A stretch of DNA of 58,876 nucleotides, the filler included, from Sphacelaria rigidula (Eukaryota): assembly GCA_964200075.2 (NCBI GenBank). It is 8 parts of 8 records of this genome, joined end to end, with 100 filler letters (N's around TTAATTAATTAA, not from the genome) between each part and the next. Parts side by side here need not be neighbours in the genome. Positions count along the whole stretch, not along the records: positions 7,374 to 14,646 come from CAXNAA020015680.1; 7 more parts are not named here. One strand, given 5' to 3'. The translations under genes were made by a program, and so were the position numbers. Of this stretch, positions 6,410 to 57,960 are shown one piece after another. A model generated the notes under the pieces. The model was not told the origin of the DNA and searched no databases. It was given only the letters and a program-made list of their open reading frames with translations. Each line of letters begins with the position of its first letter. The first letter of the stretch is position 1.

Positions 6410-6815
6410 GGCAAGTTACTTGAATTGAGTATAGGTGAGCCAGGTCACTTGATCTCTCAGAGTAGCTGAGGTCAAATATAGGTGACCAAGTCACGTGATT
6501 CAAGAATAGCTGAGGCAAGCCACCTGATCTTAGAGTGGGGTCCAAATTACTTGAATTGGGTAAAGGTGAACCACGTCACTTGATTGTAGACTAACTGACG
6601 CAAGCTACTCGAACTGAGTATATAGGTGGACCACGTCACTCGATTTTAGGCTAGCTGAGACAGGTTGTATGATCTTAGATTTGAAGGGGTGAGTTACTTG
6701 AACTAAGTACAGGTGAACCGCGTCACTTGATTCTAGAATGGCGGAGGCAAGTGGCTTGATCCGAGTATACAGTTGAACCAAGTTGCTTGATATCAGACTG
6801 GCTGAGCAGGTTACT
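6410..6815. repeat. Degenerate ~29-bp minisatellite (~14 units)
   Basis: Recurring units like CAAGTCACTTGATTCTAGAATAGCTGAGG and CAAGTTACTTGAATTGAGTATAGGTGAAC. Confidence 0.75.
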
Positions 6816-7273: not shown

Positions 7274-7373
7274 NNNNNNNNNNNNNNNNNNNNNNNNNNN
7301 NNNNNNNNNNNNNNNNNTTAATTAATTAANNNNNNNNNNNNNNNNNNNNNNNNNNNNNNNNNNNNNNNNNNNN
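7274..7373. other. Artificial contig linker (also 14647-14746, 22020-22119, 29392-29491, 36764-36863, 44135-44234, 51506-51605)
   Basis: Identical 100-bp N44-TTAATTAATTAA-N44 blocks (stops in all six frames); contig lengths never increase, 7273 down to 7271. Confidence 0.97.
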
Positions 7374-7541
7374 TTAGCGTGGACTACTTACTTAGCGGAC
7401 TGTATCAACGGTTTCCTTTTTGTGTATGTAGCGTAACGACGGCTGCATTATGAGCATACTTTGTTTTTGCTTCGCCTTTCCTTCTTTTCTTCTGACGGTC
7501 AGGACATCGGTAATGATATTTGTCAGCGTGCCTGTTCAACC

Positions 7542-8153
7542 TGTTGGAATAGCTCGTGTTGACAGGCACTGTCGTCAAGACAGGCCAACCACTTATTCAG
7601 AGAATAGTGGTCTTTGCAGACGATGCACCAGTGATCGTCAGATCACTTGCTCCTGCAGCACAGATAAACTCAGTTGAAACAAATGATTGTGGGGCTCTTC
7701 ATCCGGCCAAGACAAAACAGAATGCACAGTTCCTTCAGCAAGCAGGAACTGGAGGTAATGGAGGAGAGTGAGAGAGTATAGGCGATCGAGGTGACCGAGT
7801 CCATGCTCATCAATTCCTGGAACAAAAACAAATCGCTATACGTACGTAGCAAAAAGGCTTCCACGTCACTTGCATGGCGTGGCGCCAGCTCACACACAAC
7901 AGGATACACTGCAAGCTGTGCTACCCTCCTACTTCTACAGCATACTACTGTATAACAACTCCTGGCAGCACACTGTCATTCTCAAAGCCTTACGTGGCAA
8001 CAAGATACTATCTACTGTACCGGCAATAAACTGTAAATACGGCGTTTGGCGTGAGCGGGTTCAACCGTAACTAATTTCGCCGCTATTTGCTGCAGAGTTT
8101 GAACTCATAGATACAACAAGCAGCTGAGGTACAGGCTGCGTAGAATTCCAACA
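7542..8153 (-). repeat. 3' LTR (612 bp)
   Basis: TG..CA ends with perfect 9-bp inverted termini TGTTGGAAT/ATTCCAACA; first 144 bp match 14503-14646 with 4 differences. Confidence 0.93.
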
Positions 8154-8160
8154 TCCCCTC
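8154..8160 (-). other. Polypurine tract
   Basis: Minus strand GAGGGGA abuts TGTTGG of the 3' LTR. Confidence 0.8.
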
Positions 8161-8189
8161 ATGAGTTCAACGTCATGGAAAATCTACTT

Positions 8190-9398
8190 TCAATCAAACT
8201 GAAAATCAAGTACACAAACAGGAGAAATGGCAAGGTACATCTTGCTGATGTGTAGGCAGCAGTCTGCATGCAAAATTGCATATTTACCTCGTAAACAGAC
8301 GCCAGTATAAAACTTGCTACACATTCCGTTTCGTCTCGAAACATACACATGCTTGTTCACTGCACAGGCATCAGCCATTTTGAGCCTGCAGTAACCTAAG
8401 GAACGATCTCTTGTGATACGTCTCGGCTTATTCGTAGAGACATAAAAAATAGGGAGAAAAAGAGTCAGTGTGGAAGAATTAATCCACCAGTATAAAAAAA
8501 CAAATACGGTGAGGTGAAGCTCACCAGATACCCTCCGCACAACAAACATGGAAACATCCGTTCCACAAAGATCATTCTTCGAATTGATACTTTGCATAGG
8601 AGAATCAATTTCGTACCCTATGCAAGTACTGTACACATGCCAAAGTACGCACGGCACTTATGCTACCAATCTTATTGAACGAGGTACCTTCCTGTACACA
8701 AGAAGAAACGTGAATTTCACATGAACCAACTCCTGACCCAACAGCACTCGTATGTTAGTTCAAATTTCGATCGATACATCCAAGTCTCTTCCGTATTTGG
8801 AGGGTCGCGTAGGTACTGATGACGACACCCCTACCTTGGCTAGTCGAAAGGTTAGAAGGTCATGAACCCTCTTCGTAAGGAGGACATCAAAATCGTCCGG
8901 TGTCTCATGAATCTAACCTTTTATCAAAACATTTAGTACTCTTAAATCCAAGAAAAAACAGATGTCTGCTGTAAAGTAAAGCTGCTTGAGGGAACGTAAA
9001 AAGTCGAATATGGTAGGATATTCACTTTCGTCAAAAAACCCGAAGCGTCTTAGATTTGCTGCCATTCTCCTCCTCGCCGTCCAGCTTTTTCCTGGTACTC
9101 CGACGTGTTGTAAGTATCTTCTTCGGCAACCCCGGTCGATCGTGGATCCTTGTACGATGTATGGTAGCTGAGCTGGTTAGTTCCCGAGGCGGTCACTAGC
9201 GCGTGGAGTAACACCGGTAGGTTGTTGTACGGGTGTATTTCCGAGGCGCGCTCTGGCGCGAGGAGTAATGCCGGTGGATTGAGTGTTATTACGACATGCG
9301 TTCCTGCGCGAATTACGGTTTGCGCCTGTGCGGGAGTCACCAGTGTTGTTGTTAATGCAGGCGATACGTGTGTTGCGGGCGTCGCGGTTTCCACTCAT
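8190..9398 (-). pseudogene. Decayed extra ORF between pol and the 3' LTR
   Basis: One frame from ATG 9398 to the stop at 8190 (403 codons) with only 4 internal stops (9177, 8913, 8760, 8658). Confidence 0.5.
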
Positions 9399-9591
9399 GT
9401 TTGGTAGTGGTTTGTGAAGGGTCGGTTTGTAGATGGGGATGAAGTGATGTGTTGTCGGAAGGTGGATGGTGAGTTGTGATGTGGTGGGGGCGATGGGTCG
9501 CCCGACTTTGGCTCCTTGACTAAATGGACGTATGTAAGTTGATACGTCACTCTTGACGATGACGTACAGCAGCCGCTTCCGTAAGTACGTA

Positions 9592-11342
9592 TTACTTTCC
9601 AGAATTCATGACTGCGTCCACAAGTCGGTGGTGGGTTGTCCTATCGCAATGTTTGGTGAGTATATCAGCCAGTTGCGCGGTAGTTCTGATGTAGTTGATG
9701 GTAATCTTGCCGTTGGTGATGAGGTCCTTCAAGCTGAAAAAACGAATCGCGAGATGTTTACTTTCGTTTCGGAAGTTCGCATTTGAAGAAAGATGGGAGA
9801 GCTCCCTAGGAATTGGAGAGGATGATTGGAGGCCGACAGACGACCACCCGAGCTCTCGCAGAAGATTAAAAAGGTAGGTACCGAACTTTCCTCCTCTCGC
9901 CAGGGCTATGAGTTCGGCCTCTGTAGTAGAAGTAACTGTTATCCGTTGTAGGCTTGAATAAAAATGCACTAGTCCGTTAGATAAAAAAAACATCGTTCCA
10001 GTTGTAGATTTCATTTTTCCTTCGATGCCACTGTTGCCGTAGGAGCTATCGCAAAAGCCTCGTAGATCCAAATTGTTGCCGGAAGAGCGGTAGATGATGG
10101 GCAGGTCCGGAGTTCCTTTTAGATAGCGGAAAATGCGTTTCACAGCCGCTAAGTGCTGTGTCGTAGGCTTACTCATGTAGCGCGCAACCTGGGTAACGCT
10201 GAAGGCGATGTCGAATCTCGTACACTGAGACAGGAAAATCAAACTACCCACCATAGCTTGGTACTTCTCTATAACTTGCTGATCTAGGAGATGTTCCTCC
10301 GAGTCTGGTAGGATACTATTGGTGATCCCAGGTGTGTGTACCGAGTTGCAGGATTCCATATTGAACTTTTGAAGTAAGGAGATGACGTATTTATGCTGTG
10401 ACAGTTTCAACGTTCCACGCTCTCCCTCGAGACTTCAATACCCAGGATGAGGGAAACGGGTCCCAGATCCGAAAAAGCAAATTTATTCTTGAGCGTGTCT
10501 TGAACATCTTGTAGAAGCTTGATAGAGGATCCGGTTAGGACAATGTCATCGACGAATAACGTGAGCATGACATACTTGTCATTTTATTCTCTCGTGTAGA
10601 CGCAAGGGTCGCTTGCTGTCGCAGTAAATACCAGTTTCCTCAACTCGGAAACGATGGTGAAGTTCCCGACGTTAGGAGATTGCCTGAGACCATAAATCGC
10701 TCTAGACAGGGGCATTACATGAGGTTGTCCGGTAGCAGGGTCCGTCGTCTCGAAGCCCGGTGGCTGTTTGAAAAATAGTGTTTCTCTCAGTTTTCCATTT
10801 AGAAAGGCTGTCTGTACATCAAGCGCAACTACTGGCCAGCTTTTTGCAGTGGCAATCGCGAGAAGAATTCGCTGCCTTTCGAGTCGGCAGACCGGTGCAA
10901 AAGTACTGCCGCAATCGAAGCCATGTCGTTGTGCCCAGCCTTGAACAACGAGTCTTGCCTTGAAGCGTCCATCCGCCTTGACTTTATATACCCATCGCGT
11001 GCCAATTATGTTGGTGTTCGGTGGAACTGCTCCAGCTGGAATAATGTCAGCCACACGATGGTCTTTGATACTGCGGAGCTCATCGAGCATGGCTGCTTTC
11101 CACTTTGAGGCATATGGTGAGGAAGAGGCCTGTTTGAAATTATTCGGGACGAAGATGGATGCAGGGGGCACGACACGTTTGATCCCGACTGTCCCAATAT
11201 AGTTTGAAACTGATTCCAATGCCATGGATGAATTCCGCGGAGCTTCGATCGCCAAAGCTAGTTTTTGGAGTTCTCGGAATTGACGTTGGTTGGTAGGAGA
11301 TGAAGTAGTGCTGGCCGCAGTTCCGGCGGAGCGGAGTCGCAT
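9592..11342 (-). pseudogene. Copia reverse transcriptase + RNase H (disrupted)
   Basis: WKAAMLDEL, KARLVVQG, LDVQTAFLNG, LFVDDI (~10545-10562, after the premature stop at 10584), RFDIAF, GFCDSSY, STTEAE, ADILTK; frameshift near 10430. Confidence 0.95.
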
Positions 11343-11359
11343 AGGATGAGTAGATGTGG

Positions 11360-12717
11360 TTGAGCTCTCGCCGCGGTCTCAGCTGTGAAATGCCATCAAA
11401 GACGTTGCTGTTGAAATCAATGTTGTCTTGTTGTAGGTGGTCTTGATCATGATGAAGTTGGTCTTCGACTTGTTGATCTTGATGAAGGTGCTGCATGTTA
11501 ATATTTTCCCCCGAAGCAGTTGGAGTTGAGTCCGTCCGTAGGTTTGTTGCTCCGTCTGCTTGTTCGATGGAGGTAACATTTCCGGAACTGTAGATTTTTC
11601 CGGAATACCTATCGTAAATCCGATATGTAGGACTATCATTATCATATCCAATCAGTACTCCTTCCCAAGCTTTATCCTCTAGCTTGTTAATGTGCCCCTC
11701 CTTGTGCACGAACGCTCGTGATCCTATGATGCGTAGAAATGCTAGATTCGTCTGTTTACCAAACATCCTGTAGTACGGAGTTTCTCCGTTGATGCTCCGA
11801 CGTGGTAGACGATCCATCAAAAATACTGAAGTGGCAACTATTTCCCCCCAAAGAAACTTGGGCAATCCCGCCTCGTTTAGAAGGCAACGAGTAATATTAA
11901 AAACTGTTCTCCCATCCCTCTCACTCATGCCGTTTTGCTGAGGTGAATGTGGGGAACTGAATTCCTGAAGGATGCGTGTCGTCTTACAATACCGACGAAA
12001 GTAGTCTGCAATGTATTCACCCCCACGATCTGACCGTAGGCGGTGTACCCTAAGTCCTAAGGGAATCGCCACGTCTTGGATGTACTTGACAAGTGTTGAG
12101 AGCGCCTCATTTTTTGCCTTGATGAAGTATACAACTTTTAGTCGACTGTATTGGCCAGTGAACTTCGCCATGTACTTGTAACCACCTAATGCAGTCGGTG
12201 AGAATGGACCCGGGAGGTCGGTAGTTACCAGTTGCAGACGTTCTGTCACTGACAAAGAGTCCGAGGTTTTTGGATGATTCTTCTGGGCGCTTTTATTTAT
12301 CATGCAGGTGTTACAGAAGGAAAGGGACCCCGTAAATTTCACACCTGTTTCGGGAATATTCATAACCCGACGCATCGCTGGCTCCGCGGGATGCCCCAGT
12401 CTCCGATGCCAAACTCCTGCAGTCATAGTAGTAGAAAGAGCTGAAGCGTCTCCCGCAATCGTCATAAAAGTTAAAGCTGTCCCCATGCCCATATGTTCTC
12501 CGGACACTACCTCAGCCGCTAGTGCTGACCCAGTTCTTGAGTCGACGGGTTTGTAATTCCGGATGATCTTCATGTCGATGTAGTGGAGCAAGCTGTTGTC
12601 ATCAGGGCGAAGTGGTACTCTAAAACGTCCAAGATCAACATAAGAGTTGACACCAAACGTTGTTCCGACCCTCTTTGTTCGTAATGCGTAAACAGGAGAA
12701 AAGAGATGCTGTCCCAA
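11360..12717 (-). pseudogene. Copia GAG-pre-integrase and integrase
   Basis: WHRRLGH..CNTC zinc finger, TDLPGP, LRSDRGGEY, QQNGMSER (DDE triad), GKQ..GSRAF/IGY SH3-like region; frameshifted relative to both gag-PR and RT. Confidence 0.95.
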
Positions 12718-12719
12718 CC

Positions 12720-14324
12720 CCGGAACGCGAGGGCTGGGAGCCGGATGGTATGCTCATTCCCCTGCTGATCACAGACGATGGAGTGGAGTACTTCGTTTCC
12801 TGTTCTACTCAGGATATGACGACCTGCTGTCAGAATTCTCATGGGAGGATCGAGTTTCACATAATCAAACATCTCCTCCTCAATATTAGGGAGTAGCTGA
12901 TCGTCGATGTAGTGATGACTGGCCCCGGAGTCGCATACCATCTTAAATGATATCGACACCGGTAGCCGAGTGTTGTCCTTGTCTGCAGGATCAGCAAAAA
13001 AGCTACAGCCTATGCCGCTTGATGGCGAGCTTGCGCCAGTCGCTGTTGGTGCTGCCGATTCGCTAGTCTCTTGACCTCGGATGTTGGATGGTGCTGTCGT
13101 CGATGCAAAATCCACTGTGACGGTGTTTGCTTGGCGTTGATGTTCGTTGATGTTGTTGTTGTCTCTACTATTGTTGCAGTTGATGTCGTTGTTATCGTTC
13201 CTGTCGTTGTTCTTGAACGTTCTACCATTACCGATTTGATTCTTACATTCTGAGTTGTCATGTTTATCTGTACGTTGCAGACTGCACCATTTGACAGACC
13301 TGCTCCTGCTGTTGGACTGTCTTTCTGAACGACAGTTACGCGAAACGTGTCCTGGTCTACCGCAGGAATAACACTTTGCAGCGAATCTTGAAGGTGTTGC
13401 AGATGAATCGAGCGGCGATGCCGCTATCATGGCGGAATCACGACCGCGTACTCCCTTCGACAAAATTCCGCGGGCGACGCGATTTGAATACATATTCCTC
13501 AATGTTACTTCGATGCCGGAGATGCTGAAGTCTGGGTCAAGCTCCGCATCATACTCTATCCTGTCGTATTCATCTGTTAAGCCTTCGACCACGATGTCCG
13601 TAAGTCTATCATCTGAAATGGGCTCACCCATGTACACCAGCTGATCACGTAGTTCATAGATCTTGGTCAAAAACACGTCAGGACCTTGGCCAGGTGATAT
13701 CATCTTGATGATATTCAGCTGACGCATAAGAATACGCCGCCATTGCTTCGAAATGTTCTCGTATTTATCGACCAGTGCCTCCCATGCAATTTTGCCATCC
13801 GCTCTTGCGTGGCCCTCCGGCTCGAAGCGAAGAAGAAAACTACCCGCTGGGCCTGTAGTTGTCAAGTATAGTATATTGAACAACTGTTCGTTGCAGCGAT
13901 CCCTAACATCAACTTCAAATCTGTTCACCACAACTCTCACATGTGTATCCTCCCGAAAGGAGTCCACTCCGCTGCCAGCCAGCGGGTCCCCAACTGGATC
14001 ACTTGTTTCGGCTGCCTCTTCAGATGAAGACGGCGCCGCTGCTTGGGAGCGGGTGTGTGGCGGAGTTGATCTTGACCTGGGTCGTGCAATTGGAACTGAT
14101 TGGGCACCTTGAGTGTGCTCCACGTCATCAAAAGTTTCCGCGGAACGTTTACTTTCATTGATTATATCCGAAATCCCAGGATGTGTGAGGGAAATCATTG
14201 CGCGCGTGCTGCGCTTCCATTCGAGGGAATGTTTTCCGTCGAATTTCCTGATGCTCCTGATGAGCTGTGCAACAGATGGCTGTCCTTGATTATTCATCTT
14301 GTTACAGTATGTGTGAGAATTCAT
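12720..14324 (-). pseudogene. Copia gag + aspartic protease
   Basis: KFDG motif, UBN2-like gag core, CCHC knuckle CYSCGRPGHVSRNC, second degenerate knuckle WCSLQRTDKHDNSEC, protease VCDSGASHH. Confidence 0.92.
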
Positions 14325-14487
14325 CACACCTAAAACCTTGATCAAATAAGATGTATAGAGATAGGACTCCTCTCACTTTTTACCTGCCGTGACCGTGACG
14401 ACCTTGATGGGAAGTCCCCTCGCTGGTGCTGACCGACGTAGTCTCGAAGCGAAGGCTGATGACCTGAAGACCTACGTGGTCGCGAAT

Positions 14488-14502
14488 CGATGGCTCAAAA
14501 CC
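14488..14502 (-). other. Primer binding site, copia half-tRNA-iMet type
   Basis: Minus strand GGTTTTGAGCCATCG directly follows the LTR end ..CCAACA; resembles the GGTTATG(A/G)GCCC PBS. Confidence 0.65.
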
Positions 14503-14646
14503 TGTTGGAATAGCTCGTGTTGACAGGCACTGTCGTCAAGACAGGCCAACCACTTATTCAGAGAATAGTGGTCTTTGCAGACGATGCACCAGTGATCGTC
14601 AGATCACTTTCTTCTGCAGCACAGATAAACTCAGTTGAAGCAAACG
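14503..14646 (-). repeat. 5' LTR (partial)
   Basis: ~97% identical to 7542-7685. Confidence 0.93.
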
Positions 14647-16259: not shown

Positions 16260-19200
16260 CTATGATCGCTGCGCGGCACCCTGTTGCTGCCTCTGTTGTT
16301 GTGATCCCCGCCCTCCCCCATTACCCCTTCTCCTATTTGCCGCGGGCGCTCTATTCTTGCGCATGCCCGACCCGTGCCCCCCTCCGTCACCACCCCCGTT
16401 TACCATGCGCCCGTTGCTCCCATCCTGTCCTCCCTTGGACCTGCCTCCGCCACCGGTGCCACTAGTTACAGTTGCATCACCTTGCAACTGTTGACTCCGT
16501 TCGCTATTACTATTGCCGTTACCGCTACCTCCACTCCTGCCGTGGAACGGCGCCTGCTGCGCGCCGCGAGGCTTCGAAACGCCGTTCCCACCGAACCCAC
16601 CCCCGCCGCTTCCGTTGGCGTCTACTGCGCCATTGCTGCGAACTCCCGAACCTTGGCGATGACCGTTTGATCGTCCGCCATGATCGTGACGCGACGACAC
16701 GGTAGAGCCGTGCCCTTGAGACTCTTGTGTGTGCTGCTGCGAGCTCTGACCGTCGCCGACTGAGGCAGACGGGGACGTCTTGTGGTGGGAAGCCTGGCGA
16801 CTACGCCGCCCTCCGGCTCCGGTGCCGGTGGTTCGCTGGGGAGGCGCAGGACTGGGCTCCCCGAATGCCTCGTCATCGGCCCAGCTTGCCGAGGGGGCAC
16901 GTGCTTGGGTAGGCAGCGCTGGTGGTTGCGCGCCGGCTTGAGAAAAAGATCTTGATGCTGCCGCAGGAGTCCCGCCGCCTCCCCCGCCGTCGTTACTCCA
17001 GCCGTTCTTCGAGGTGTGGGCGCGCGGCGACGCTCCTGCAGCGTGGTTCTTCACGTGTCGCAGCGACTGATTATTGTTGCTGCTGCTGCTACTATTGCTA
17101 CTGCTGTGACTGCTATTGTTGATCTGGCCGTTGTTGGAGCTTGTCCTTCCCTTGGGGTGCTGAGGTTGAATGACGGGCGACGAGGTTTGCTTTTGCCCAA
17201 CACCAACGCTGCCACTGCTCGCGGCTTGCTGGTGTTCCGGCTTGTGGGCCTGACCCCGCCCGTGTTCTCGGGGGCGCCGTTGGGGCTTGCCGCTTCTTTG
17301 ACCATGGTCTTGTCTGGGTGCGTGATCTTGCCTAGCTGCCTGCACTTGCTTCGGTGCCTGTTGTTGTTGTTGCTGCTGCTGCTGCTGCGCAGCTGTCGTC
17401 ACCACGGCGCGTTCGCTGGCCCCAGAGCCAGCCGCAGATTGCTGTTTGTTGGAAGGCTGATCATCTCCGACCTTTGCCCCGTGCCCCGCCGTAGAGTTTT
17501 TCCGGTCGTCGACCCTCGCTTCCCCCCTTCCCCTCCCCCTCCCACGTGTACGCGATCCTGGTCCGCGCCCCCTCCCATTCCCGCTCCGACCCTTGGTACC
17601 GACCGTGGTGTCTCCCCCAGCGGATGCATCAGCCCCCGTTCCGTTCACGACGTCCGAATTGTTGGTGCTGGTTTGCCCTTTGGCGTCAGGAGATGACTCC
17701 GCAAGGGTTGGCGGGGCCTGGGAAAGCAGTGGAGAACAACGGGGAGAAAATATACTCAATACTCAGTATTTTCGAAGAGTCATACTTTCAGTACTCAAAT
17801 TTGAGTCGAGTATTTGAGGTCGTACTCAGCCTACTCGAAATTTGAGTAGAGTATTGAGGTCATACTCAACTGATACTCTATACACAGGCATTACTGAGAG
17901 TGCTTACTCAATATTTGAGTAGAATATTTGAGGTCATACCTGATCTACTCAAAGTTTGAGTAGAGTATGTGAGGTCATACCCGAGTGATAGTCTATACTC
18001 AAGTATTCCCAGAGTTGCCTATCCATGATTGGTGCTGAAACTTCAGCAAACATTCGGATACAGTATATTCGAAAAAGAATTTGAATCATAACCAAAAGGT
18101 ACAAAAATAGGGTAGAACGAATATTGGGGTTTTGTCGAAGGGCGTTCGGATTGTACCGTGTAGCCTGGCGGGGGTACTGGAAAGCGTAAAAATTATATTG
18201 CAGTATTGTGCAGTCGAAGCCTTGCCCTGTTCGTTCACCTGCACGCTTCTTTTAATTTTATTTCATGGCCACAATTCGCTCATACTCTTTGAAGCCTGTA
18301 ACGTAACGCCACCCATCTAATTGATGGCCATCGTTCGCCCATGTATTCAAAATAGTCCGTGGAGTGACGTCTTGAGGTCGCCGACGGTCACGGATACTCA
18401 CCATACCCAAGTGATACTTTAAACTCAAGTATTACTGAGAGTGCTTACTCAATATTTGAGTAGAGTATTTGAGGTCGTACTCGATCTACTCATTACGTGA
18501 GTCCGCTCGAAGACTCATTTTGAATTATTTCACAAATACAGAGTCAACCCTGTATTAGTCGGGGGTCGGTCCCAAAAGGGTTGATGAAATAAAATGAAGG
18601 AGAAAAAAAAAGGGGAAAAATAGCGAAAAAACAATCGAACAAATGAACACGTCGGGTGTCCAACCCATTTGTACCAGTTGCTGACGTACCTACCCTGTCA
18701 ACTGGAGTATAGAGGCATTAGGCTTCAGCATGAAATGCTTTCCTGTACAGTTACTGGTAATTTGTTATTTTCCCGTTTCGTTAGTGCCGTAACGAGAAAT
18801 GACGGGAATTTCGATAGTTGCCGAGTAATTTTTTCCGTGTGATTGGGAAGATGTTTTGCTTTGGATAGGAAGGGTAATTCCAATTCATCACGGTAACGTC
18901 ATGGTAACCTCGAATCCTCTCGACGGTTGGGTAATGGGTTCGAATATCGGTGCATTCACTAAAACATAAGCCAAGCACCGCAAAAGGAATGTGGAGTACT
19001 GAAACGAGACGAAAAAGGAAAAAAACTTCTGTGTTGGCCTTTCTCCTGTGTGACCCCGGCTGATGCGCCCACATATGCCGAAAGGGGGAGACACGCGTCT
19101 CCAGAATAGATGGGGTTAACAACACACACAAGCCAAATATTCTCGTGGTGAATTCACTGAGATCCTTGGAATTTCCGAACCTCGAAATTGAGTTCGGTGA

Positions 19201-38301: not shown

Positions 38302-41300
38302 CTTGTAGACCTCGCCGAGCATGCCCGCCTTGGCCCTGGCTAGGTCGTCCGGGGAGGCTTTGCTCTCCACCATTGCCCGCAACTTCAACGCGTATTCTCG
38401 AAGCTTGGAGGTCAGGAAGCGGTTAACCCTGCCGCGCGATCATGCGTTTGCCGTACAGGTCCCGCGAGGGAGTTATAATACTTGCCGTAACACATTCGCT
38501 GCTGCTTTGAAGTCACTCGAGCTGTTACAGACACAACCAAATGCACGGGACCAAAAATCATACGGAGTATGTATTTGTTGCAGTATTTCCAATCATTAGC
38601 ATTTGTAGGTCTTGGAACCAAGACTGTGCTTTCGTTATCGATCGAGATGGGAAACATATATATATATATATATCAAGAACGAAGAAAATTCTCCAGCGTG
38701 TGACCTTCCTCCCGAGTGATCCCAGCTGACGCCCTCACAAGACACCGAAAGGTGTAGACTGGCGTCCGGAATAGATAAGATTACAACATAACACACACAG
38801 ACACGTGCCCGATACACAGAAAGGAGACAAGACCAAAAAACAGCAGGGGAAGAATTATGAGACAAGAAACAGGCGAACAGGAAAATAGAAAAAGCGGGGA
38901 TGAAAGAAGGAAGACAAAACAAGGCAAGAGGAAAGAAAATAAATAAATAAATAAATAAATAAGAAGAAATAATAAAAAAATAAAAAAGGGCGGGGCGGGG
39001 AGGGGGGGGGGGGGGGGCACATGATAAGGCAAGAGCAGAATATACCGAGGCATAAGCGGCATGAGCTCGAATGGCCGCTTTACTCGACCAACTGACTGGC
39101 TTAGACTCATATGATTTTACCAGAGCGAGGCGGATGACGTCTTGCTCTCGGGGAAAGCGCTCTTCGGCACCACGCCGTACTTGCTGACCAGATTCGTCAC
39201 CATGTCCCACTGGCCTGACACAACAACAGGCGCACGACCAACACCATGGCGGCAGTGAGCTAGCTAGCAATAAAAGAACACGTGTAATATACGTAACCGA
39301 ATCTTGAGGAACAGAACAAATGAGCTGAAAGTGTGCGCCAAGACTAGAAACGCAGGTCTGGAGAGGCATCACGACTGCACACAAAAACACACAAATCAGG
39401 ACCGCTATGCCTGGGAGATGACTACGTGTGCAATATTTCGGAAATGTGGGGAAAATGACCAGCGACCCGGGGCAAAATACGAAATATCCCCACTCGAGGG
39501 AATACGCGCTTTGGAGGAGCGGGAGAAAAAATATATAAGCACCCAAATAAATCAACTGCATTGAAATACGACTCATCATCTGTTTGAGGTGACGAATCTT
39601 AAACATGATCCAAGAGGGTCTGCGCTTGGAATGGAGCAACGCTACGATAGCGGGGTACACTTTTTCCGCGAAATGTTGTCTACTTCAGGGGCTCCTAAAG
39701 ATTCTAGAAGCACAAGAATATGGGTCAGGGCATCTCCCCGTTTGCAAATTCATTCGGGATATCCCCAGCACATTGGAGTAGTAATCCTGGCGTACTTTTA
39801 CATATTTTCATGAGCGGTGGTTTGCATGAGATCAAGGGCTCCTAACAATTCCAACCTCTCAGAAAATATTTGTGCACCCCTACCGTAGCATCACTCAATG
39901 CCTCGCCGGTGATACCAAGCATGGAAAATATGTTGTCAAATACTGCACTGGGAGCTTGGTCGGCAGATGCACTTCTTAACAGCATAAGCTGCGGAACGCC
40001 AGCATCAACGGCCAGTCAGTTTCTGGTTCGAGTGCAGTAAACACAATCGTGGAACGGCTGTGCACGACCGGAGTACTGTACTGTAGTACTGCGAGGATTT
40101 GCATCGTTCCGTATATTTGTGGATCGCGTTCACAAAAAATTCTGCAGAGTAGGCGGCCTCGGGTACCGTAGGCGATGTAGAGGACCCCGACAACGCAGCG
40201 GAATAGCCACTCGGGGGTAAATACCGCCAAAGACCATGTACATGATACCGACGACCGCCACAGACAGCCTCTGTGATGAAGATGTTCAAAACACCGCCCG
40301 GGTATCACTTAGCAACTCCAAAAACAGGCAGGGGGCTTGTCGCGGGTTCTCTCGACACCGCTCTTGGCGTGACGTCTTTGCGTCAGTTCGTTCTGTGTTT
40401 GTTTGTTCCCTCTTTTTACATCTTCCCCGTCGTGTTTGAGCCACGCAAGAGGGTGCTTGAGCAGTGGGGTGCTTCCTCCTCAAACCTCAAGCTTGGGTGC
40501 ATCTATCTCGCCCCATTACATCTGCGTTTGATTTCGTAGGGGATTCGCTCATCGTTCATCTGACGCAATCGATCGACCTATGGATCAATCAACCAATGAA
40601 TCAATCACTTAAGGTTAGGGTTAGGGCTGGCTCGGGCGACAAATGACATGCCAAGTTGCTGGGAAATCCCGTCGTATGCATCGTATCCTCCGCATGACAC
40701 GTCCTCACCGCCGTCGGATATGGGCTCCTTCAGAAGATGCTGGACCAGGCGCCCGTCCAGCCGCTGGTTCGCCGTGAGCAGAACATTCTCCAGGAAATAG
40801 TTGCACTTCTCGAACTTATCCCAAAAAAATAAATAGCTCTGTGACTGTGTGTACGTGTGTGCGCGTATGTGTGTGTGTTTCCGGTGTTGGGAGGGAGGGG
40901 GAGGGGGGGGGGTGTTCAGGGCTGTTTTTCAAGCAACCACAAGAGAAGAAAAGAAAACGAAGACAAACGCAACCACAGGAGGAGCGGCTAGGGTAAAACA
41001 CGATGCAGAGGGCACATGGTTCCTTCTTTTTAGTACGAAGAAGCCGTTGGTCATGTATTGCTGTGTTAACTCTGCTTTTTTTCGAGTTTCTCACTGTAAA
41101 ATTAATAGACTTGTCGCGGCCAGGACAATCGAGTCCGTCGACCTCCGGACAACATCAACTCTCTGTCTGTCTCGTCCTCTCTTCCCATCGCCCCGACGAC
41201 GAGCAATGCTACAGTAGGGGTTGAGCATTTGGGCCCAGATCCTTCTCATTTAGGGGGCTCCTAACTTTGCGAGCTACACAATAAAATGGGTTAAGACATT

Positions 41301-42039: not shown

Positions 42040-42284
42040 GCCGTGGGTACGCAACATTCGACTTCATGGTCGACGAGGGAAAGGGACTGCTGAACCCCTC
42101 TCGCGATAAATAAAAAAAGGCAAGCACTGCAGAAGGAAGGTGGGGTACTAAAGACAAATAAAAAAGGGGTAAAACAAAAAACTCCTGTGTTGGCCTTCTT
42201 CCTCCTGTGTGACCCCGGCTTGTGCGCCAACCTACACCGAAAGGTGTAGACCGGCGTCCAGAATAGACGGGACGACAACACACT
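42040..42284 (+). mobile_element. SINE copy, 5'-truncated
   Basis: GAGGGAAAGGGACTGCTGAACCCCTCTCGCGAT..GGTGTAGACCGGCGTCCAGAATAGA..ACAACACAC. Confidence 0.8.
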
Positions 42285-42778
42285 TCGAAGAAGAAATCCA
42301 ACGCATCTGGCAGATATCAAACCCGCGTTCTCTCCACCATGACGGTGATAGTCGGAATTATTTTAATTTACACCACCGGGGCGCGGCGGCAATGTTTTCT
42401 CATATTTTGGACCGTGATTGCTCTTCCATTAGTGCTGAGTGAGTCCTAGCTATTCAGAGCACACCGATATTTCCCACATCGCTGTTTCTTGGGCTAGACG
42501 TAGGTCCGTACAACTCTGAATGTCTCGACAGAACTTCTCTGCACTCTGAACCTCCGAATCTTGGTAGCACGAGGACAGTGGCTGAAACACATCAAGCCAG
42601 CACAGCGGGGTCCAAACAGCTAGGGGCAGGCACCCGCTACCCAAGCGCGTTGTATCTCGTGTTAGCCTTTTGTTCACCATTCATACGGCGGTCCACGTCC
42701 CGAGGCAATCCAATGCAGTAGTGTAGGAGGCGCGGCCTTGTGCATGCCAGAGAAGTCGCCAAAATGTACAGTCGTTGG

Positions 42779-47300: not shown

Positions 47301-48380
47301 ACACCGCCCCTCCGGCGGGACACGTGGCCGCGCAAGCACAGGTTCGAACAAACTACAGCAGAATTCAGAATCTTGTGTGATGGTACATCAGCGGTGGCGG
47401 TGGCGGCTTGTGCCGTGTACAGGGTTGGAGTGCTACATCGTAATGTGGTATTGGTGTCGAGCGTGCACGCAGAAAAGACGCCGTACTCTGCACCTGGAGA
47501 CGAAGATTGTGCTTGTGTGCGTGTGTGCTTGTTACGTGTGTCCCTCGGAGGGCAAATGGGGATGCGGGGCGGGCGGTTCCTCTTGTGCATTGATGTATAC
47601 TTCGCCGTATATTTTTGGGTATATGCCATGTGATATACGATGGTGCGGTGGGCAGGGGGAACGCGGAGAGGTGTTTCAACCTCACGAGAGTCTTGGGTGT
47701 GTTCATGGGATTCCTTGTGTTGACGGATTTTGCGCGAGCTGAATTGATCTTCCTGATGGGGTCTGAACCTTCGAGATGTGAAGCGATATTTCTCAGATGA
47801 ATGCGAACCTTGCACTTCAAAGTTTTATTAGTCGACAACTGTAGCCACAGAGCGCAAGCTCGAGGTGTCATCCAGAAGAAATGGCTGCTGAGGGTTGACT
47901 ATTTTCTCTTGGACCTGAAAAATGACGTGAAGGACCCTACCTCCAACCTTCCCGCACACGCTTTGTGCATGAGGTGTTGAGCAGGTATAGTAACATGGTC
48001 TTACGTGGAGATGCTGAGTCGTTCCTTCACCTTCCGTCTTCCCGCAGGTTCGAGCGCAAGCACAGGCTCAGGTACAGGCTCACGTGCAAGCGCAGATGCA
48101 CGCACAGGCGCAAATGCACGCACAGGCCCAGTTGCACGCACAGGCGCAAGTGCAGGTTCAAATACATGCCAAACTGCAGCAGCAGGCCCAGGCAGCGCAG
48201 CAGCAGGCTCAGCAGACACAGGCTCAGCAAGCACAGGCGCAGGCACAGGCTGCTGCGGCGGTGCAGGTGCAAGCCCAGATGCAAGCCCAAGCGCAAGCGC
48301 ACGCACACGCACAGGCTGCGGCGGCAGCGCAGATGCAAGCGGCCGCGAGAGCCGCTGCCCAGGCGGCATACTATCTACGT

Positions 48381-48420
<40 letters not shown>

Positions 48421-50359
48421 GCCAAGTGCTGGTGAACGCACAGCAAGGTGGACAAGTTTCTGGGCAAGGAGCGACGGCGCAAGTGACGCCGGCGGCTGTG
48501 GTCTCTCACGGACCCGTCGCCGCTGCTGCCGCCTCGCCCGCGGTGCCTCAACACCCTACGCCTACAGCAATATCGTCCGGCCCCGTCCCGCTCGTGGCGC
48601 CTGCATTGGCTGCCCCTGCGGCGGTGGAGGCAACTGCGGCTGTCTCCAACACAGCAACTCCCTCCGCTGTAGGCGCGCTTCCTGTGACTGCCTCTGGGAC
48701 AGAAATAACGGCGCAACCCACGGCTCCCGCCGCGACCTTGACCGTGGCGGCGCATGCCTCGGCGGCGGGGACCGCCGCGAGCACGACGCCGCTAGTGGCG
48801 GCGACACCGCCGTCAGGAGTCGCCGGAGCGGTTGCGTGTAATGCAGGTGGTGCTGGTGCTGGTGCTGGTGCTACCACAAATGGTACATCTGTGTCCATCG
48901 GGGGGGGCGTTGAGCGGGAACGGGATGTCGTTGGCGGAGCGATGGCGACTGCTGCTGCTCCTGCTGCTCTTGCTGCTACAGTTGAAGGGGTTGGAGAATC
49001 ATCGGAAGTGGTGGAGGTGGAAACTGATGTAGAGAGCGATGTCGACGAAGAGGAGCTTGGGAAGGAGATTCGGGTGAGTTTTCGTGTTGTGGAGAGGGGC
49101 ATTTTTGGTTATTGTGTGTGCGTGTTGAGTGGGCGAGGGGAGGGCGGGTAAGAGTCGGACTTCAGATATTGTTTGGGTTCGTTGCGTTTTATTGTTTTGT
49201 TTTTGTATGTTGCTGTTCATGCAAAGGATTTGATGGAGTACAGAGACGTGCTACCTGGTGGTTGATGTGCAGCTGTTTCGCGCGGTGGATTGTTTGTTTT
49301 GATGTGTGTTCTGGAGTTGGGTGTTTCGTGTTCCCTGCTGAAACCAGCTAGCTTCCGTAACAAAAAACTACTGCACGTACCGGCATGCAAGGACTCCAAA
49401 CATATTCACCAGAACTCCTGTCGCTTCGCTGATGAATTGGTCGAAGTTTATCACCCCCGCGTAGATGTGCCATGTTTACGAGCGTGGCCAAAATAAACGG
49501 ACATCACTTCCTGGCAGCTGCACCATTCTGGTTCCGTATAGTCATTTTTATTCGAAGTGCAGGTTGCATAGTGTTACTTCTTCACGAACCGATGCCAGGA
49601 CACAGTTACACCGCCACACACGTTCGTCGTCACCCGTAGCTTCCCGTTTCCTCGTACCACCGTTTTGGGCATTGTTCACTGATCCCCGCCCACTCCACCT
49701 GCCACTCCTCCTTCCATTTCTTCCCTGTATCCTCCTAACCTTGGGACAAATGATAACACACGCATGCGGATGAACTTCACCTTCGCATGTGGATGAGAAG
49801 AAAGGACACCAGCGGCGCGAGTACACACGTAATCGCCCCCTCGGCCGAGACCGGTATGGCAACGAGTACTGGCGATTCGGCGGGGACACGCGCCTCGTCC
49901 TGGTTCGACGACATGGCTGCTGGTGGGGGCTGTACGACGGGCCGGCGAAGGTATTTGCGTGTGCACGTTGTTTTGTGCGTGTTGCTTTTGACTTGATTGT
50001 GGTTTTAGTCGCTGGTGCGAAGGGAATCGGGCGGGGAACAGAATTGCGTACCGACATGGACAAGGCAGGTTGTTTGATGGTGGAATTTGCACCCGTAAAA
50101 AAGAGTGACCTTGAATTCGTTCGGGAACGACGTTACAACAGAGCAGTTGTCCGAGCCTGAATGTTCGTGTGTGACATGAGTGAGGATACCATGTTGTGTT
50201 GTGTTGGTTGCCTGTTTTTGTGTGCTTGACTGAAGCTGCAGTCTCACGTCCACCCGATTGTGGCGTTTTGTCTTGATATCATGCTATTCTACTCCAGATC
50301 CAGGAGTTGGTGAAGAGCTTGGATGTACAGCTGGACGGCGAGCGGCATCTTCGCAGCAG
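44366..50359 (+). CDS. WHIM2/WHIM3 (WSD)-domain chromatin protein (BAZ/ACF1-like ISWI partner), partial; exons 44366-44513, 45460-45681, 46314-46681, 47099-47341, 48048-49073, 49813-49950, 50298-50359
   Basis: Seven AG/GT exons join in compatible phases. [15 protein letters not shown] (WHIM2), [19 protein letters not shown] (WHIM3), VCCLC..HAGC, (QA)n and polyQ tracts. Confidence 0.82.
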
Positions 50360-51667
50360 GTACAAACTGGGCCAGCCTAGAAACGGGTTTGAGCTCTCAA
50401 AGCAATATCTCATCGGCACAGAGGAGTTGGGCCGTGATCTGCGTATGGTATTAAACGTCTCATCAAGGGGAAGGTGCCCATCTGCTCAGGAGTTGGGCCG
50501 ATATTCTCTCGTTGATTGAACCCCTTGTCTAGTAACTCATGTACCGCACGGAGATAGTGTCCACACGGAAATCGATATGAAACCCCGCACGATACACTCA
50601 GCGGATGGCGGCGATTTCAGGTGTGGAAATTCCCTGGAGCACGGGGAGACGATAGATACTCTCACCTTCACTTAAGTCATTATCTACCTCGAGATATGGC
50701 GCACGCAATGTTTCATACTTGAAGAAATGTATTACGAGCAGAAGCACTATTAATAGATGCCCTAAATCTGGATATCGGTGAGTTTTGAAGAGTTCTATGA
50801 ATTTTTGTAGGAAGAACCGCTAGTGCATAATAAAATGGACTGAAGCAACTTTTTGTCGTTTTTTCGGTATAGTTTATATTTTTTCGTCTTTTGAGGGGAG
50901 TGTTGAGGAGAATTGAACATTAGTTTTGGGCCTTCTATCAATTGTTTCAGAATTGTGATTTAAAACTTAGCATGGAGAACCACAAAGGTATGCTGAATAA
51001 AAAGTAAATGAGCCTTGTTTATTTTTTAGGGGGAGAGGTTCGGGCGTTTTTGTAAAAAAATACGGCCGTCACCATCCTTAAAAGTCCTAAACGAGTGAAA
51101 AAAATGAATATATACCAACCTCACCCACTCTTTTTGGTTCGTTATGCCCTAGCGAGGCTCCACACAAATTCCAGTACAGAAGCACCAAACGTGAGCCGGT
51201 AAGTGGTCTGCAAAATACTGTTCCGAATTTCTACCGACCCGGTTACTGCACGGCCCGTTTGCCGGCCAATATTCAGAGTTGGACCCCAAAAGTTGGTATG
51301 GAATAGGGCATGATGAAAAAATTCACACGTCGGACGAGTCATTACTCGTCGGAACGAGTGCACTCGTGGACGTTTTTTCAAAACACAACGAGCATGACTC
51401 GTGTTCTCGAGTCATTAATTTTTTTTACAACAAGCAATGCTGTGTGGCAAGGTGATGGGGACATTGTTATCATCCAAGGCCACAAGTGGCGGGCGGCCCG
51501 CCGGTNNNNNNNNNNNNNNNNNNNNNNNNNNNNNNNNNNNNNNNNNNNNTTAATTAATTAANNNNNNNNNNNNNNNNNNNNNNNNNNNNNNNNNNNNNNN
51601 NNNNNAATTTCAAGTGAAAAAAAGTATGCATGATCCAGAAAGACTAATCTCGCGGTCTTAAGGTTAA

Positions 51668-51879
51668 CGGTCGACGAAGGAAAGGGACTGCTGAACCCCT
51701 CTCGCGATAAAAAAACGAAAGGTAAGCACCGCAAAAAAAAGTGGAGTAGTAGAAAACAAATGAAAAAGAAAAAACTTCTGTGTTGAATTTCCTCCTGTGT
51801 GACCCCGACTGGTGCGCCCACATATATCGAAAAGTTTAGACCGGCGTCCAAAATACATTGGGCGACTACACACACACAG
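51668..51879 (+). mobile_element. SINE copy, 5'-truncated; next to a partial piggyBac-like MITE end (51606-51663)
   Basis: Same body and (AC)n tail as 42040-42284. Confidence 0.78.
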
Positions 51880-57610: not shown

Positions 57611-57960
57611 GGTCCCCCCGGTGGCTCAGTCGGTAACCTCGAAACCCTCTGACGGTTGGGTCGTGGGTTCAAATCTCGGCGCAATCTGGGATTTTTTATT
57701 CATACAACGCCAAACAGTGGAGAGCGACCAGTGTATAATATGTCGTGGGTACACGAGGGAAAGGGGCTGCTGAACCCCTGTCACGATGAAAAATAAAGGC
57801 AAGCACCGTAGAAGGAAGGTGGAGTACTAAAATTAAACAAGCAAAAAAACTCCTGTGTTGACCTTCCTCCTGTGTGACGCTGGCTGGTGCGCCCACATAT
57901 ACCGAAAGGTGTAGACCGGCGTCCAGAATAGATGGGACGGCAACGAAACACACAACACTA
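57611..57960 (+). mobile_element. Full-length tRNA-derived SINE
   Basis: Pol III A box TGGCTCAGTCGG (57622-57633) and B box GGTTCAAATCT (57666-57676), body shared with 4 other copies, AC-rich tail, possible CACTAC TSD. Confidence 0.8.

Follow-up and report, generated by a model that had tools for sequence, protein, structure and literature searches.

An accessory gene, here called ORF2, is carried between pol and the 3' long terminal repeat (LTR) by one clade of Ty1/copia retrotransposons of the brown alga Sphacelaria rigidula (genome of 244 Mb). We describe it from a copy in a 58,876-nucleotide stretch of DNA (hereafter the window), a string of ~7.3-kb contigs in which the element occupies the whole contig 7374-14646 on the minus strand. 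ORF2 is a protein-coding open reading frame (ORF) under purifying selection, and we regard it as next to certain that it is a real gene of about 212 codons. Its product may be a nucleic-acid-binding regulator that acts in trans on DNA or chromatin, a reading that we hold at a probability of roughly 0.45. The features of the ORF2 region are as follows.

8760..9398, minus strand: ORF2 of 212 codons and a stop, interrupted in the window copy at codon 74 (9177-9179) and codon 162 (8913-8915)
9144..9398, minus strand: basic, Arg/Asn-rich, low-complexity N-terminal arm, from charge and composition
8763..9143, minus strand: ~125-aa domain of six predicted helices and no known family, from conservation, selection and AlphaFold
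8161..8759, minus strand: subfamily-specific 3' untranslated tail (codons 214-403 of the first-pass annotation of this DNA), neutral, with few stops in the ORF2 frame

The first-pass annotation had proposed a hidden ORF of about 400 codons at this place. The minus-strand frame 9398..8190 does hold 403 codons with only four internal stops, at codons 74 (9179), 162 (8915), 213 (8762) and 247 (8660). A dinucleotide-matched null gives 20.0 +/- 4.2 stops, and four or fewer occurred in 0 of 5000 simulations, also when the best of six frames was taken. A DNA search of the genome returned four full-length sisters at 84-95% identity, plus partial ones. All sisters that cover codons 74 and 162 have sense codons there, and the start Met is kept in four of five sisters. 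The stop at codon 213 is common to all four full-length sisters, that at codon 247 to three of them, and the wider ORF2 family terminates at about the same alignment column as codon 213.

Comparing sister copies for codon-level conservation, as had been suggested, upholds one part of the frame and not the other. Against L005, the most distant sister, the ratio of nonsynonymous to synonymous substitution (dN/dS) is 0.18 for codons 86-212 (Fisher p 1e-8), with two indels, both in-frame, and 0.89 for codons 214-402 (p 0.88), where six of seven indels break the frame. Across the four sisters the dN/dS of this tail is 0.69-0.89, with changes spread evenly over codon positions. Used as a protein query, the tail gave nine matches on six contigs, all of them DNA-similar sisters, and a protein search of the genome found no homolog of it in other subfamilies. 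Because the codon 213 stop is shared, the tail is neutral and its matches are confined to sisters, the gene has 212 codons, and we rejected a single 403-codon gene or stop readthrough on these grounds. A selected gene thus exists where it had been proposed, and its frame ends after codon 212. One set of counts weighs against this limit: the tail at 8193-8759 (minus strand) has one stop in the ORF2 frame where 10.2 would be expected (P 0.00025 for this frame and 0.002 when any of the six is allowed), and the sisters' tails carry just 2-5. One possible reason for this scarcity is that the tail may be a captured coding relic, now neutral and specific to the subfamily.

Of 95 candidates in the genome, 84 matched the ~125-aa domain, with identities of 27-100%. 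We examined 50 loci, the window copy among them; RNase H lies 202-719 nt upstream on the same strand in 36, and on the opposite strand in none. At least five of the other 14 have reverse transcriptase (RT) or integrase just upstream and have therefore undergone internal deletions. Substitution rates were computed for the 300 pairs formed by the 25 of these 50 loci whose domain is free of stops. In pairs of 60-75% amino-acid identity, the mean proportions of synonymous (pS) and nonsynonymous (pN) differences are 0.71 and 0.19, and dN/dS between subfamilies is 0.06-0.25 (17 unsaturated of 26 pairs). Pairs under 60% identity are mostly saturated, and those above 85% range from 0.12 to 1.79, scattered as expected for decay after insertion. 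ORF2 thus has the position and conservation of an aORF-3S, being a sense ORF between pol and the 3' LTR in many copies, conserved at the coding level; a transcript of its own would be made from a candidate internal promoter.

In a tree of 81 RNase H sequences, which holds no Sirevirus references, ORF2 is confined to one clade (support 0.982). Within it 36 elements have ORF2, 14 lack it and 6 are too short to call, the first count being inflated since many loci were picked for carrying ORF2; outside the clade, none of 25 has it. ORF2 and RNase H distances are correlated (rho 0.86, 14 loci), which fits vertical inheritance. Selection, fixed position, confinement to one clade and the brown-algal host bear out the suggestion of an accessory gene in an algal copia lineage. 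Among 1.84 billion public representatives we found 17 homologs outside the genome; ten were looked up and none is named. They are known as sequences alone, from which neither copia context nor organism follows, and searches for their loci found none in JGI metagenomes (query P0011) and none in IMG/VR (query P0003).

The N-terminal arm has a net charge of +6 to +12 and 16-24% Arg in seven natural open copies, and begins with a polar, not signal-like, N-terminus. A TPRARARL-type motif is doubled in the subfamily of the window copy (9237-9275 and 9180-9218), and the strict pattern is present in 16 of 25 loci. AlphaFold gave the ~125-aa domain a predicted local distance difference test (pLDDT) score of 81 and a predicted template modelling (pTM) score of 0.76; a single-sequence fold of a full-length natural copy was uninformative (pLDDT 41). 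Besides core hydrophobics, two aspartates and a tyrosine are near-invariant in the domain, whose charge differs among members. The hydropathy maximum of ORF2 is 1.49, and only 4 of 39 domain sequences exceed 1.6, so that no conserved transmembrane segment was seen in the 39 members by hydropathy window alone. The product is predicted from these models to be soluble, with a basic arm and a compact helical domain.

Searches left this domain without a family. Pfam gave nothing below E 0.09 for the 39 members and no match, env-like and Athila domains included, for the 402-aa product with stops read as X. PHROGs and PDB sequences returned nothing credible, and Foldseek found nothing at E<=0.001 among PDB structures and the viral set BFVD. 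In the ESM Atlas the best match was 0.89 to Fungal_trans_2 (135 shared features), below the tool's lead level, and query P0014 had no usable match. Longer or fused forms of ORF2 numbered 0 among 8000 candidates, which is weak evidence. The weak fold leads that were obtained point toward DNA-binding proteins.

Two features lie between pol and ORF2.

9489..9591, minus strand: candidate internal promoter just past the pol stop, with four ACGT cores (two of them TGACGT)
9399..9488, minus strand: candidate 5' untranslated region of a subgenomic mRNA, a ~90-nt G-poor, C/A-rich leader by composition

Ten such spacers contain 19 ACGT where shuffling gives 8.1 +/- 2.5, and 0 of 1000 shuffles reached 19; the spacers are related, not independent. 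TGACGT, termed the aureo-box in a passage of 10.1101/2022.06.05.494858, occurs twice in the window spacer and is present in 4 of the 10. The leader has 2% G and 48% C in the window, and 1-11% G in nine of ten spacers. From this composition we infer an internal promoter behind the pol stop. Contigs from three runs guessed to be RNA span ORF2, and contigs cannot reveal transcript starts or strand. A joint of 11446 to 9947 was considered as a splice and rejected, being not GT-AG on the element strand and equal to a genomic RT deletion in L003 and L004. In these two loci RT is gone (integrase is joined to late RNase H; window equivalent 9947-11446) and ORF2 is kept. The same joint is also found in contigs of runs X1-X3.

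Elements without ORF2 have also spread. In one subfamily (E), a ~690-nt deletion removing ORF2 is common to 10 of 15 ORF2-less loci (L117, L119, L120, L122, L126, L128, L130, L133, L134 and L171), and an ORF2-less derivative has therefore multiplied. This subfamily has a variable 26-nt tandem array directly after the pol stop, of about 20 units in L134. In L013, L016 and L018 (G000:C3482, C20789 and C4975) a shared internal deletion has brought ORF2 into frame with the N-terminal half of RT, with an identical junction and open frames of 335-450 aa; by their sequence, these loci form a replicated non-autonomous derivative that retains the ORF2 domain. In L132 and L161 the 5' portion of ORF2 points the opposite way to pol, and L161 looks like a fold-back. 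L023 and L026 have insertions of about 250 nt in the N-terminal arm, and the frame is open through the insertion in L026.

We propose that one copia clade of this alga carries an old, vertically inherited accessory gene of about 170-210 aa in the interval between pol and the polypurine tract (PPT). ORF2 would have a short mRNA of its own, which starts in the ACGT-rich spacer after pol and ends within the 3' LTR. Its protein would bind nucleic acid, the most likely target being DNA or chromatin of the element itself inside the nucleus, and would act in trans as a regulator, either a transactivator or an anti-silencing factor. Such action would let ORF2-less derivatives multiply beside ORF2-bearing copies. 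An anti-silencing role, already raised by the first-pass annotation, may apply. A narrower version seems to us a long shot. In it, ORF2 would be an independent DNA-binding domain derived from a tyrosine recombinase, which the copia clade recruited as a transactivator or anti-silencing protein acting in trans; the TGACGT boxes of its internal promoter would be read by bZIP factors such as the blue-light aureochromes, and the ORF2-less elements would be free-riders. If true, this would add a class of accessory protein not seen before in retrotransposons, carried by hosts whose silencing is unusual. The core-binding domain of tyrosine recombinases (N-terminal domain of Cre/Tre, domain 1 of Ndc10, SroF of Phi3T) is a close comparison that profile searches did not turn into homology: hhalign of the ORF2 domain against 15 N-termini of host DIRS-type recombinases, the one recombinase family tried, gave a probability of 0.15 and a score within shuffles. 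Separately, L061:1375-2640 (minus strand) contains an open tyrosine recombinase frame of 421 aa that follows an RNase H-like one, an arrangement of the DIRS type, and its recombinase N-terminus has 55 matches in the genome.

ORF2 could instead be a cytoplasmic RNA-binding protein, which we consider a tentative possibility. It might suppress silencing by small RNAs, or serve the element's RNA and particle assembly as a chaperone or condensate scaffold. An Arg-rich low-complexity arm beside a small helical domain would suit this role, Ectocarpus copia elements accumulate small RNAs (passages of PMC12477816), and such a protein would also act in trans, hence fitting the shared ORF2 deletion. It is weakened by the lack of a viral match in BFVD at the threshold given above and of a sequence match to solved structures, and the weak fold leads favour DNA-binding proteins.

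That ORF2 targets a host protein, be it as an adaptor, as a decoy or as a small enzyme, and does not itself bind nucleic acid, is in our view unlikely; a restriction factor or a chromatin factor could be such a target. The near-invariant aspartates and tyrosine and the variable domain charge would agree with it, and for Arabidopsis, numerous contacts with host proteins are predicted for the accessory proteins of transposable elements (in part of PMC13547354). Against this, Pfam, PHROGs and Foldseek gave no enzyme family or fold match, and the conserved basic arm is left unexplained.

The first-pass annotation had also named an env-like gene as an option. Its product would be a membrane protein of ~400 aa, possibly produced by readthrough of the stop at codon 213, since stop suppression is reported for Sirevirus env-like genes. 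The stop-poor tails and a position shared with env-like ORFs (sections of PMC7264820 and PMC3414828) speak for it; it is largely refuted by the neutral tail with its six frame-breaking indels, the second stop at codon 247 and the absence of tail homologs in other subfamilies, and we give it very little credence. Since the gene ends at codon 212, the claimed hydrophobic stretch falls in the 3' untranslated tail, where it peaks at 1.38 on a 19-residue Kyte-Doolittle window, and what is predicted is a soluble helical domain behind a basic arm with a polar N-terminus.

A frame that arose by chance or is carried along passively, without function as a protein, could be argued from the broken window copy, the many subfamily-E copies without ORF2 and the lack of a named homolog. 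This reading is refuted for the lineage by dN/dS with synonymous sites saturated across subfamilies, by conserved start, stop and position, by the confident fold and by the 17 public homologs, and is true only of the window's dead copy.

The known systems closest to ORF2 include accessory genes of other elements. Sirevirus env-like ORFs likewise lie in sense between pol and the 3' LTR of copia elements, are patchy within their lineage and of unproven function, and have an internal promoter as one reported route of expression (passages of PMC3414828). Their proteins have transmembrane and coiled-coil domains (same passages), whereas ORF2 encodes a short soluble domain with no conserved hydrophobic segment, its 39 members have no Pfam match and it resides in a brown alga. 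PMC7264820 reviews the accessory ORFs of plant elements, env-like ones in sense and others in antisense. According to sections of that review, the additional ORFs of gypsy elements (Grande GENE23, Retand, PvRetro13 ORF2) also lie between pol and the 3' LTR, are conserved across copies and have a proposed regulatory accessory role, GENE23 being nuclear with its own promoter; they are antisense and in Ty3/gypsy, whereas the S. rigidula ORF2 is sense, in copia, and has none of their Pfam domains. VANC of VANDAL DNA transposons is another lineage-specific accessory protein with possible trans action on its own family (part of PMC13547354). It belongs to another element class, and we found no sequence or fold link to ORF2. 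VANC anti-silencing acts on DNA methylation, which, to our knowledge, brown algae largely lack.

As a gene family ORF2 is real and apparently undescribed, and it belongs to a general kind of accessory gene that is already known. In PMC12477816, none of the 23 curated copia entries for Ectocarpus mentions an ORF after pol, the term 'ORF' is absent from the passages covered of 10.64898/2025.12.07.692804, a discussion of brown-algal copia, and the only ORF mentioned for diatom elements in sections of PMC2806351 lies upstream of the polyprotein. No description of ORF2 was found in the literature covered, which excluded Repbase, subscription journals, bioRxiv supplements and the Ectocarpus consensus files. 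Most accessory ORFs known in LTR retrotransposons come from plants and insects, with functions mostly open. ORF2 adds a selected, clade-wide case in a brown-algal copia lineage, with a domain that matches no library searched. Its protein, being small and foldable, offers a way to study how brown-algal retrotransposons counter host control, and natural derivatives with and without ORF2 in one genome allow comparison.

The host element itself has the following features.

14503..14646, minus strand: 5' LTR, 3' part only, ending at the contig end 14646
14492..14502, minus strand: primer-binding site, immediately after the 5' LTR end
9592..14372, minus strand: gag-pol in four frames of the ORF list (12570-14372, 11140-12753, 10584-11378 and 9592-10434)
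8154..8160, minus strand: PPT, immediately before the TG of the 3' LTR
7542..8153, minus strand: 3' LTR of 612 nt, TG...CA, from LTR comparison

It is a Ty1/copia LTR retrotransposon, with gag, integrase, RT and RNase H in copia order together with LTRs, primer-binding site and PPT. Pfam matches in gag-pol (Retrotran_gag_2, zf-CCHC, gag_pre-integrs, rve, SH3_retrovirus and RVT_2) agree with the copia identity given by the first-pass annotation, whose pol stop, PPT, duplicated TG(I/V)TPRA motif and quoted peptides are likewise all present. The window copy is dead, its gag-pol being split over four frames. The partial 5' LTR differs from the end of the 3' LTR by three mismatches over about 142 nt, the primer-binding site is presumably of the half-tRNA-iMet type, and only one PPT was seen in the element.

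The window is a concatenation of separate contigs, with spacers (N-run/TTAATTAATTAA/N-run) at 7274-7373 and at each ~7.36 kb, and neighbours across spacers are therefore unlinked. A degenerate array of ~29/58-nt repeats occupies 6412-6806, at the end of the contig adjoining that of the element. EsV-1-7 repeats are greatly expanded in the genome (4575 candidates, of which 150 were scored and all 150 exceeded the cut-off), which we take as the mark of a brown alga, this family being linked to that group. A short dispersed repeat family, probably a non-autonomous element, has 4-5 copies in the window (19020-19130, 38744-38797, 42063-42289, 51664-51879 and 57743-57954), and a 377-codon frame at 48018-49151 (plus strand) has Gln/Ala-rich 18-nt and 12-nt repeats.
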